Source of the DNA: a virus
Direction: 5' to 3' (one strand)
IMG/VR virus record: IMGVR_UViG_3300044712_000732
Span: 125,776 to 189,775 of that record
Length of the DNA: 64,000 nt
Positions 19,252 to 19,785 of the stretch are shown here, one piece after another. Both the position numbers and the translations under genes were made by a program. Each line of letters opens with the position of its first letter. Within the stretch, counting starts at the first letter, position 1. The notes below the pieces were generated by a model that was not told the origin of the DNA, ran no database searches, and saw only the letters and a program-made list of their open reading frames with translations.

Positions 19252-19785
19252 ATGAAGCAAAAAGAATCAGAAAACAGAATTAATTATTCAATTAAAGATT
19301 TAACCGTAAGGTTAGTTGGTGATAATGTTACAAATGGTGTAATTGACACTAAAAGTGCAATAAAATTGGCTAGAGATATGGAATTAGATTTGGTCGAAAT
19401 TTCGGGTCCAGTTAACGGAAATCCATCAATTTGCAAAATAGTTGACTATCAAAAATATCTTTACGACAAAAAGAAAAAAGATAAAGATCAAAAGAAAAAG
19501 CAAAAATTAAGTCAGTCAGAAGTCAAAGAAATTAGAATGACCCCGCATACTGATGAACACGATTTTAATTTTAAATTAAATCATGCTAAAAACTTCTTAA
19601 CCAATAACGATAAAGTATTAGTTTCAGTATTCTTTAAGGGTAGAGAAATATCATATAAAGAACAAGGTCAAATTGTTTTATTAAAATTTGCAAAGGAATT
19701 GGAAGATATTGGCATACCTGAGTATTTACCTAAACTAGAAGGAAAAAAAATGCTAATGATGATTAAACCTAAACCAAAAAAATAA
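19252..19785 (+). CDS. infC: translation initiation factor IF-3
   Basis: Full-length similarity to bacterial IF-3: ...VRLVGDNV...LDLVEISGPVNGNPSICKIVDY.KY.Y...KEIRMTPHTDEHDFNFKLNHAKNFL...FKGREISYKEQG...LPKLEGKKMLMMIKPK. Confidence 0.85.
   Translation: MKQKESENRINYSIKDLTVRLVGDNVTNGVIDTKSAIKLARDMELDLVEISGPVNGNPSICKIVDYQKYLYDKKKKDKDQKKKQKLSQSEVKEIRMTPHTDEHDFNFKLNHAKNFLTNNDKVLVSVFFKGREISYKEQGQIVLLKFAKELEDIGIPEYLPKLEGKKMLMMIKPKPKK

Follow-up and report, generated by a model that had tools for sequence, protein, structure and literature searches.

An initiation factor IF-3 gene in the replication module of a probable huge phage of Bacteroidota

The IF-3 gene and its product

We analyzed 64,000 nucleotides of viral DNA (positions 125,776 to 189,775 of the IMG/VR record IMGVR_UViG_3300044712_000732; hereafter the window, in whose coordinates all positions are given) that carry a gene for bacterial-type translation initiation factor 3 (IF-3). 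The gene is accompanied by a short leader and by a palindrome at its 3' end:

19215..19251, plus strand: short, A/T-rich leader of the IF-3 gene, lacking a Shine-Dalgarno (SD) sequence (sequence reading)
19252..19785, plus strand: infC-like gene for a full-length, two-domain IF-3 of 177 amino acids (aa), with an ATG start (profile, PHROG and structure matches)
19777..19817, both strands: perfect 18-bp palindrome, probable bidirectional intrinsic terminator (folding and conservation)

The product of this gene is a complete, canonical IF-3 in which a Lys-rich helical linker joins an N-domain to a C-domain. A first-pass annotation, made without database searches, had described the 177-aa open reading frame (ORF) as aligning end to end with bacterial InfC, and our profile searches agreed. 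Both Pfam domains were matched above their cutoffs: IF3_N (PF05198) with 71 bits against a cutoff of 26.9 (residues 10-80 on profile positions 1-70 of 70) and IF3_C (PF00707) with 110 bits against a cutoff of 34.8 (residues 90-174 on positions 2-86 of 86). The NCBIfam equivalog model TIGR00168 (infC) was matched end to end (positions 2-170 of 170) with 168 bits relative to a cutoff of 60, and the PHROGs family phrog_9787 with 154 bits. IF-3 of E. coli (8jsg_A) aligned to residues 6-176 with E = 2e-34. We also built an AlphaFold2 model from an alignment of 50 sequences (mean predicted local distance difference test score, pLDDT, of 84). In the model, the N-domain had an alpha/beta fold, residues 66-87 formed a long helix corresponding to the Lys-rich linker between both domains, and the C-domain had a beta-alpha-beta-alpha-beta-beta arrangement. 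The C-domain superposed on 1TIG with a template-modeling (TM) score of 0.94 and a root-mean-square deviation of 0.7 A, whereas the N-domain reached TM scores of 0.85 to 6O6D and 0.79 to 1TIF. The full-length structural matches of the model were ribosome-bound IF-3 chains.

Residues were compared column by column across 112 sequences of the phage clade to which this protein belongs (see below), 80 cellular sequences and two reference sequences. The phage IF-3 retained the residue at essentially every position where cellular Bacteroidota IF-3 is invariant, and across 50 phage-clade and cellular sequences 36 columns were invariant and 27 nearly so. The family-invariant residues that were kept include, in E. 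coli numbering, Y70, K72, Y75, K94-E95, P100, D103, D106, K110, F130, G132, R133, G141, P162, E166-G167 and M170. Four arginines of E. coli IF-3 (R99, R112, R116 and R129) are not conserved in the phage protein, and likewise not in cellular Bacteroidota. Relative to homologues that are 88-92% identical, the ratio of nonsynonymous to synonymous substitution rates (dN/dS, Nei-Gojobori method) of the gene was 0.06-0.15, which indicates strong purifying selection.

The ATG at 19252 follows an in-frame stop codon located four codons upstream. Searching positions -20 to -4 of the 77 predicted genes of the window, we found GGAG or GAGG in none of them, and their leaders contained 60-69% A at positions -17 to -8 and at -3/-2, relative to a background of 38%. 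A-rich leaders without SD sequences have been reported for Bacteroidota genes (PMC7797042); the earlier remark that many of the phage genes lack SD sequences, as is typical for Bacteroidetes, is borne out by these counts. Downstream, the palindrome at 19777-19817 lies between the IF-3 stop codon and a convergent gene (19815-20237, minus strand). Its core, GCAGA-AUAA-UCUGC, contains just three G-C pairs and is bordered by A- and T-runs on either side, such that both strands carry T-runs. Predicted folding energies are -18.7 kcal/mol for one strand and -19.1 kcal/mol for the other (z of about -6.8 for both), and the GCAGA/TCTGC core, together with the A- and T-runs, is found again 3' of IF-3 in the two closest relatives (loci L198 and L200). 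Although a pattern-based scanner made no terminator call for this hairpin, we retained the previously proposed bidirectional terminator on the grounds of folding and conservation, and grade it as likely at most. Taken from its sequence, the IF-3 gene is a monocistronic unit with an AUG start, an A-rich leader devoid of SD sequence and its own predicted hairpin terminator.

Relatives, gene order and cellular counterparts

A search of 5.8 billion proteins yielded a family of 131-189-aa proteins (most of them 171-183 aa) that share 56-92% identity with the phage IF-3. Next came cellular IF-3 proteins of Bacteroidota, which are longer (198-216 aa) and approximately 56-58% identical. Among the matches returned, the clade of the window's IF-3 comprised more than 100 metagenomic clusters defined at 90% identity. 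Members of the short family were located on IMG/VR viral contigs of 140-330 kb, on an ENA contig of 298 kb and, among the matches listed, on JGI contigs of 330 and 347 kb, while a metagenome scan for IF-3 returned mostly cellular Bacteroidota loci among the matches listed. Exact copies of the IF-3 and of YqeY, a second protein of the window that is described below, were found on Logan contigs of 8.7 and 6.6 kb. Cellular relatives were collected by scanning one genome per GTDB species and retaining the best 80 (loci L005-L084). All 80 belong to Bacteroidota and are 51-60% identical to the phage protein over its full length.

The position of the gene is conserved among its viral relatives. Two replication genes flank the IF-3 gene and served as anchors of synteny:

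15655..16821, plus strand: primase-like gene, upstream anchor (phrog_47, DNA primase)
23983..25353, minus strand: family-B DNA polymerase (PolB), polymerase domain only, downstream anchor and lineage marker (Pfam DNA_pol_B)

The conserved order is primase, a variable set of genes, IF-3, g21084, g22536 and PolB. The primase was found upstream of IF-3 in L002, L085, L086, L088, L090 and L091 (44-73% identity) and also in L198/L199, and PolB was syntenic in L002, L085 and L198. Identity to the window's proteins was 64-76% for IF-3, 57-73% for the primase and 69-75% for PolB. This fixed gene order, together with the parallel divergence of the three proteins, argues that the gene was acquired once, long ago, and has since been inherited vertically along with the replication module. 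The best explanation of these patterns is that the IF-3 gene is a long-resident, vertically inherited gene of the replication module that would have originated from a Bacteroidota-like host.

We inferred the phylogeny of IF-3 by neighbor joining (NJ) with 200 bootstraps. The window's protein, about 106 metagenomic proteins and the proteins of the viral contigs clustered without any cellular sequence, with bootstrap values of 0.5 for a cluster of 112 members and 0.27 for one of 115. This cluster adjoined Chitinophagaceae/Sphingobacteriales with a bootstrap of 0.13. Such weak values do not permit us to claim a particular donor or host order. In contrast, the affinity to Bacteroidota at the level of the phylum appears clear from the 80 best cellular relatives; of the placement relative to Bacteroidetes infC that had been suggested as a check, the phylum could thus be assigned and the order could not.

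Given these relatives, we considered whether the gene might be a contaminant, a product of mis-assembly or a recently captured passenger without a function for the phage. One close homologue, P0005 (L198/L199; 88% identical), carries the NCBI label 'Candidatus Dojkabacteria bacterium', and several of the database matches to 'phage' IF-3 are on short unannotated records that might be host DNA. However, the contig of P0005 (15-18 kb) is syntenic with the window over a gene similar to A1 of phage T5, the primase, IF-3 and PolB, which suggests that this record is probably a phage contig that was mis-binned into a genome of the Candidate Phyla Radiation. The IF-3 gene of the window also matches the 25% GC and the leader style of its genome, its position is conserved in contigs of 140-347 kb, its product is merely 51-60% identical to cellular IF-3, and its dN/dS is low. 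Contamination or recent capture is therefore effectively refuted.

The gene content of the window indicates what kind of virus carries the gene. Its G+C content is 21-34% and about 85% of it is coding, with long blocks of genes on the same strand and tightly packed, often overlapping genes. A 523-aa protein matched phrog_1745 (T5 A1-like DNA transfer protein) with 448 bits, and its best database matches are in phages of Maribacter, Cellulophaga and Flavobacterium. The best tblastn matches of PolB were the huge phages LR756501/LR756503 (735 kb; 48% identity over 99% of the query), followed by LR756502, LR745206 and LR756504 (634-642 kb) and then by Prevotella phage Lak-A2. The 634-735 kb genomes among these matches are the Mahaphages described by Al-Shayeb et al. 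2020, whose predicted hosts are Bacteroidetes (PMC7162821). In addition, a protein identical to the window's YqeY was found on a JGI contig of 501,337 bp. No terminase or capsid gene lies within the window, and the phage database and GenBank phage records contained no near-identical DNA match to 22 kb of it. The phage origin assumed by the first-pass annotation agrees with the phage-type A1-like and PolB genes and with the large viral contigs that carry related IF-3 genes. These results are best explained if the window is part of a huge tailed phage (at least ~500 kb), related to Mahaphages, that infects Bacteroidota. A giant eukaryotic virus, which the 25% G+C and the array of tRNA genes could also bring to mind, was rejected based on the bacterial-type IF-3, SmpB and initiator tRNA, and also because the A1-like and PolB genes are of phage type and the genes lie close together with frequent overlaps.

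The presence of IF-3 in a phage is not new, and its novelty had been overrated: such genes have been published in huge phages since 2020 (PMC7162821, PMC7824862, PMC11748809, PMC11895373) and have a PHROGs family of their own (phrog_9787; likewise phrog_1460 for YqeY and phrog_6791 for SmpB). The reports include those of Al-Shayeb et al. 2020 (PMC7162821), of Iyer et al. 2021 for Atu_ph07 (PMC7824862), of soil huge phages and of the E. coli jumbo phage Sharanji (PMC11895373). The huge phages LR756500, LR756501/503 and LR756504, whose genomes measure 460-735 kb and whose predicted hosts are Bacteroidota, also encode a full-length bacterial-type IF-3. These copies are just 48-52% identical to that of the window and were placed outside both its clade and Bacteroidota in the NJ tree, so the copies may represent separate acquisitions or very old divergences. 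An IF-3 is further annotated in Agrobacterium phage Atu_ph07 (AUZ94813), Sinorhizobium phage Phosso and E. coli phage Sharanji, all with genomes above 200 kb. The hosts of these three phages are Proteobacteria and their IF-3 proteins are ~44-46% identical to the window's. Atu_ph07 IF-3 also lies outside the window's cluster, and no synteny with the window was detected in the Atu_ph07 locus that we fetched.

Cellular infC genes of Bacteroidota, such as that of F. johnsoniae (Jha et al. 2020, PMC7797042), encode the same domains and invariant residues as the phage gene but differ from it in their regulation and surroundings. Although this phylum is largely without SD sequences, 44 of the 80 cellular infC genes presented an ATA, ATC or ATT start preceded by a strong GGAGG-like motif. 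Another 25 of the 80, mostly from Chitinophagaceae, start with ATG, which in Chitinophagaceae directly follows an in-frame stop codon. In F. johnsoniae the ATA start has been shown experimentally and was read as a sign of autoregulation by IF-3, like AUU in E. coli (PMC7797042). Cellular Bacteroidota IF-3 proteins also begin with a basic tail of about 10-35 residues that is rich in Gly and Pro, and a crude regular-expression search found L35-/L20-like ORFs (rpmI-rplT) 3' of infC in 54 of 76 cellular loci. A near-cognate start, an SD sequence, an N-terminal tail and rpmI-rplT are all absent at the window's IF-3 gene, which sits between primase and PolB and is followed by the convergent gene and the hairpin. 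The start codon is ATG in the window and in all 12 distinct phage-borne homologues examined (16 loci when duplicates are counted), and the autoregulatory AUU start that had been suggested as something to look for is thus missing. The infC features that are missing from the phage gene are, as the cellular counts indicate, common in hosts and not universal. Because of its AUG start, its lack of a tail and its own predicted terminator, the phage gene is probably outside the autoregulation of IF-3.

Other translation genes and the possible role of the phage IF-3

The window encodes additional components related to translation:

6073..6513, minus strand: SmpB, trans-translation factor that binds transfer-messenger RNA (tmRNA) (Pfam SmpB, 178 bits, positions 2-141 of 143; phrog_6791)
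57581..57997, plus strand: free-standing YqeY, 138 aa, all-helical, homologue of the GatB tail and of the domain appended to GlnRS (Pfam, PHROG and structure)
60940..61013 (Rfam 60940-61012), plus strand: initiator tRNA with anticodon CAU (ARAGORN; Rfam, 66.8 bits)
60836..64000, plus strand: array of at least 17 tRNA genes, the last of which is cut by the end of the window (ARAGORN, 16; Rfam, 16 including a partial gene at 63951-64000)

The protein encoded at 57581-57997 had been proposed to be a GatB/YqeY-domain protein. The YqeY part of this proposal stood: the protein matched Pfam YqeY (PF09424) over its whole length with 63 bits against a cutoff of 27 (positions 2-143 of 143) and also matched phrog_1460. 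It agreed by sequence with the YqeY crystal structures 1NG6, 8XJE and 8XJG, as did its structural model (pLDDT 94) by fold (TM 0.60-0.65). The proteins of B. subtilis (1NG6) and C. jejuni (8XJE) share its length and all-helical fold, with ~25-34% identity when phage homologues are included. A GatB fragment with amidotransferase function did not hold up, as the 138-aa protein contains no GatB catalytic cradle domain and obtained zero matches in NCBIfam, and hence none to gatB. YqeY is already annotated in the Sinorhizobium phages phiM12, phiM7 and phiN3 (phrog_1460) as a 'tRNA amidotransferase', a label that is unlikely to be correct given the missing catalytic domain. The gene is also present in the huge phages LR756500 and LR756502, and our scan of IMG/VR for YqeY gave no confirmed relative. 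In some bacteria such as F. tularensis, YqeY adjoins rpsU (PMC13374519); in contrast, the window's YqeY is not beside rpsU.

The initiator tRNA that had been noted at 60940-61012 was recovered with its expected features: CAU as anticodon, a run of three G-C pairs bordering the anticodon loop, A11:U24, G2-C71, C3-G70, A73 and a U1.U72 mismatch. Position 1:72 of the E. coli initiator tRNA is C.A, and we take the tRNA of the window to be close to E. coli tRNAfMet save for U.U in its place. Thirteen viral contigs of IMG/VR that share this anticodon arm presented C.A, A.A, C.U, U.U or U-A at 1:72; the position was non-G-C in all 13 and mostly a mismatch, and U.U was also found in L110 and L115. This free variation fits a need for just a weak or absent pair. 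Several tRNAs of the array that normally have short variable arms presented long, stem-forming ones: Met (91 nt, 60836-60926), Glu (87 nt, 61294-61380), Asp (85 nt, 61616-61700), Cys (85 nt, 63454-63538) and a further CAU tRNA (85 nt, 63582-63666). The Met tRNA at 60836-60926 also has U1.U72 and is devoid of the three G-C pairs, and the tRNA at 61389-61463 has an anticodon loop of 6 nt.

We consider it probable that the phage protein is an ordinary IF-3 that supplements host translation and is kept in the replication module of a huge phage of Bacteroidota. During infection it would bind host 30S subunits like any IF-3. Since the phage gene would lie outside the autoregulatory loop and not be throttled by IF-3 itself, it could maintain or raise the ratio of IF-3 to 30S subunits as host expression declines. 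A higher ratio would keep the subunits dissociated and recycled, and the factor would speed and proofread initiation on the AUG-initiated, SD-less phage mRNAs together with the initiator tRNA that the phage supplies. In hosts whose infC has a near-cognate start, the phage IF-3 might further repress the synthesis of host IF-3. SmpB, YqeY and the tRNA array would serve, with IF-3, a common strategy of sustaining host translation rather than forming a separate phage-specific translation system.

Several observations weigh against this supplementing role or part of it. The N-domain loop S-P-N-A-x-P-P-V-C is conserved at more than 90% in cells and degenerate in the phage clade, and the window's own subclade carries a 2-residue insertion there. 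Compared with the cellular one, the linker of the phage clade has two additional residues and a higher Lys content, and Leu replaces Lys at position 123 of the window's IF-3 (E. coli K125). The changes in loop, linker and K125 that are specific to the clade make an altered specificity possible. Moreover, the nearest cellular group in the NJ tree, Chitinophagaceae/Sphingobacteriales (placed there with a bootstrap of just 0.13), uses ATG for infC, and if this group were the host the idea of infC repression would not apply. A motif TAnnTTTG, which we take to be the -7 promoter consensus of Bacteroidota, occurs in exact form ~24 nt 5' of the IF-3 ATG in L086, L088 and L090, but the window's leader holds merely a degenerate version of it (TAAAACTG). 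No such promoter is claimed for the window's gene, the motif being exact in the three related loci but degenerate here. Finally, the authors of the Sharanji study described the function of IF-3 in phages as unknown (PMC11895373).

The same clade-specific changes, along with Thr instead of the Gly of cellular Bacteroidota at position 97, could be read as marks of a specialized initiation apparatus in which the phage IF-3 and the U1.U72 initiator tRNA favor phage mRNAs or discriminate against host mRNAs. The N-domain of IF-3 contacts the tRNA elbow (PMC7797042), and the initiator tRNA encoded by the phage itself is unusual in having U.U at 1:72. We nevertheless regard this alternative as unlikely. 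The phage protein keeps every invariant residue of cellular IF-3, the phage leaders are A-rich and SD-less as in Bacteroidota such that no phage-specific mRNA signal is evident, and position 1:72 varies among phage initiator tRNAs as if it mattered just that no strong pair is formed. Nothing in the sequence pointed to the bias of start-site selection toward phage mRNAs that the first-pass annotation had envisaged.

The substitutions on the surface of the C-domain (Leu for Lys at 123 and Thr at 97) and in the N-domain loop could also belong to a dominant-negative decoy that occupies host 30S subunits and shuts off host translation. This is highly improbable, because phage mRNAs share the ribosomes and have host-like leaders, so that a general blocker would harm the phage itself, and because a full, strongly conserved set of canonical residues, along with the low dN/dS, fits a working factor.

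Another possibility is that the IF-3 acts mainly in recycling and rescue, with its anti-association and recycling activities freeing stalled or hibernating ribosomes together with SmpB and with initiation fidelity being secondary. SmpB, which was absent from the first-pass annotation and belongs to the same set of translation genes as IF-3, YqeY and the tRNAs, is encoded ~13 kb from IF-3 in the window and ~5-6 kb from it in L002 and L092. Ribosome rescue, or support of phage translation, was proposed for phage IF-3 by Iyer et al. (PMC7824862). However, we found no tmRNA gene in the window or in those relatives that were retrieved, and no gene for RRF, EF-G or a hibernation factor among the window ORFs that were scanned. 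Likewise, bS21 and other translation proteins were absent among 38 small or unassigned ORFs of the window. A module dedicated mainly to rescue is decidedly unlikely on this evidence, although the idea overlaps with the supplementing role that we favor and does not exclude it.

A more active form of interference is quite unlikely as well, and it draws on the contrast with host infC. The AUG-started phage IF-3, free of regulation, would accumulate and repress host infC genes that start with AUA, AUC or AUU and other genes with near-cognate starts. It would progressively replace the host IF-3 with a variant in loop and linker that tunes initiation on the SD-blind ribosome of Bacteroidota. IF-3 of F. 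johnsoniae fails to stabilize 30S initiation complexes in vitro (PMC7797042), and one possible effect of the phage variant is to stabilize these complexes. It might also work with the U1.U72 initiator tRNA of the phage.

Phage translation factors are a main argument for the view that huge phages re-program host ribosomes beyond merely using them. To this argument the locus adds an abundant lineage, with more than 100 protein clusters and contigs of up to ~500 kb, in which IF-3 behaves as a stable core member of the replication module. The advance is incremental, as both the gene class and the underlying idea have been published. Our results go modestly beyond the literature in the size and cohesion of this IF-3 lineage, in its fixed place in the replication module and in the contrast with host infC, from which the phage gene differs by loss of the near-cognate start and SD-like motif, loss of the N-terminal tail and a relaxed N-domain loop. 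The pair of phage and host IF-3 also offers a concrete and testable contrast, for which a reconstituted initiation assay exists in this phylum with its SD-independent initiation (F. johnsoniae, PMC7797042).

Neighboring genes and other features of the window

Two genes near IF-3 deserve mention. The protein encoded at 17696-19219 (minus strand) contains a tandem repeat, (DAEN)x8 (~18340-18460), that stands between a Methyltransf_24 domain and an uncharacterized C-terminal domain. In the relative L002, the two halves of this protein match separate places ~1.4 kb apart. The 196-aa protein encoded at 21348-21938 (minus strand) matched the PARP catalytic domain (23 bits relative to a cutoff of 26.7) and DUF3990 below threshold, and it may be an ADP-ribosyltransferase.

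The PolB gene (23983-25353, minus strand) encodes the polymerase part alone: its 456-aa product covers profile positions 136-453, and the proteins of its relatives are 453-456 aa long. A protein resembling the PolB exonuclease (DNA_pol_B_exo2) is encoded 15 kb away, at 8551-9246 (minus strand).

The window further contains a run of six paralogous-looking genes with INT_rpt, DUF723 or treble-clef domains (31120-38057, plus strand), and LAGLIDADG and GIY-YIG endonuclease genes lie elsewhere, at 5226-6020 and 10559-10960 (both minus strand). These domains indicate a heavy load of elements of the homing-endonuclease type.

Finally, an IMPDH/GMP-reductase-like gene with a split intein appears 'fractured' at 53951-56555 (plus strand):

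53951-54787, plus strand: N-extein and N-intein (…GNGGG|CFVENTKV…) of the split-intein gene
54836-55861, plus strand: free-standing endonuclease-like ORF inside the split-intein gene
55845-56555, plus strand: C-intein and C-extein (…IIVHN|CLTSK…) of the split-intein gene

Fractured genes of this arrangement are presumably the source of the IMPDH-1 split intein. The combination of a fractured gene, a split intein and a free-standing endonuclease is the arrangement of Dassa et al. 2009 (PMC2677866).

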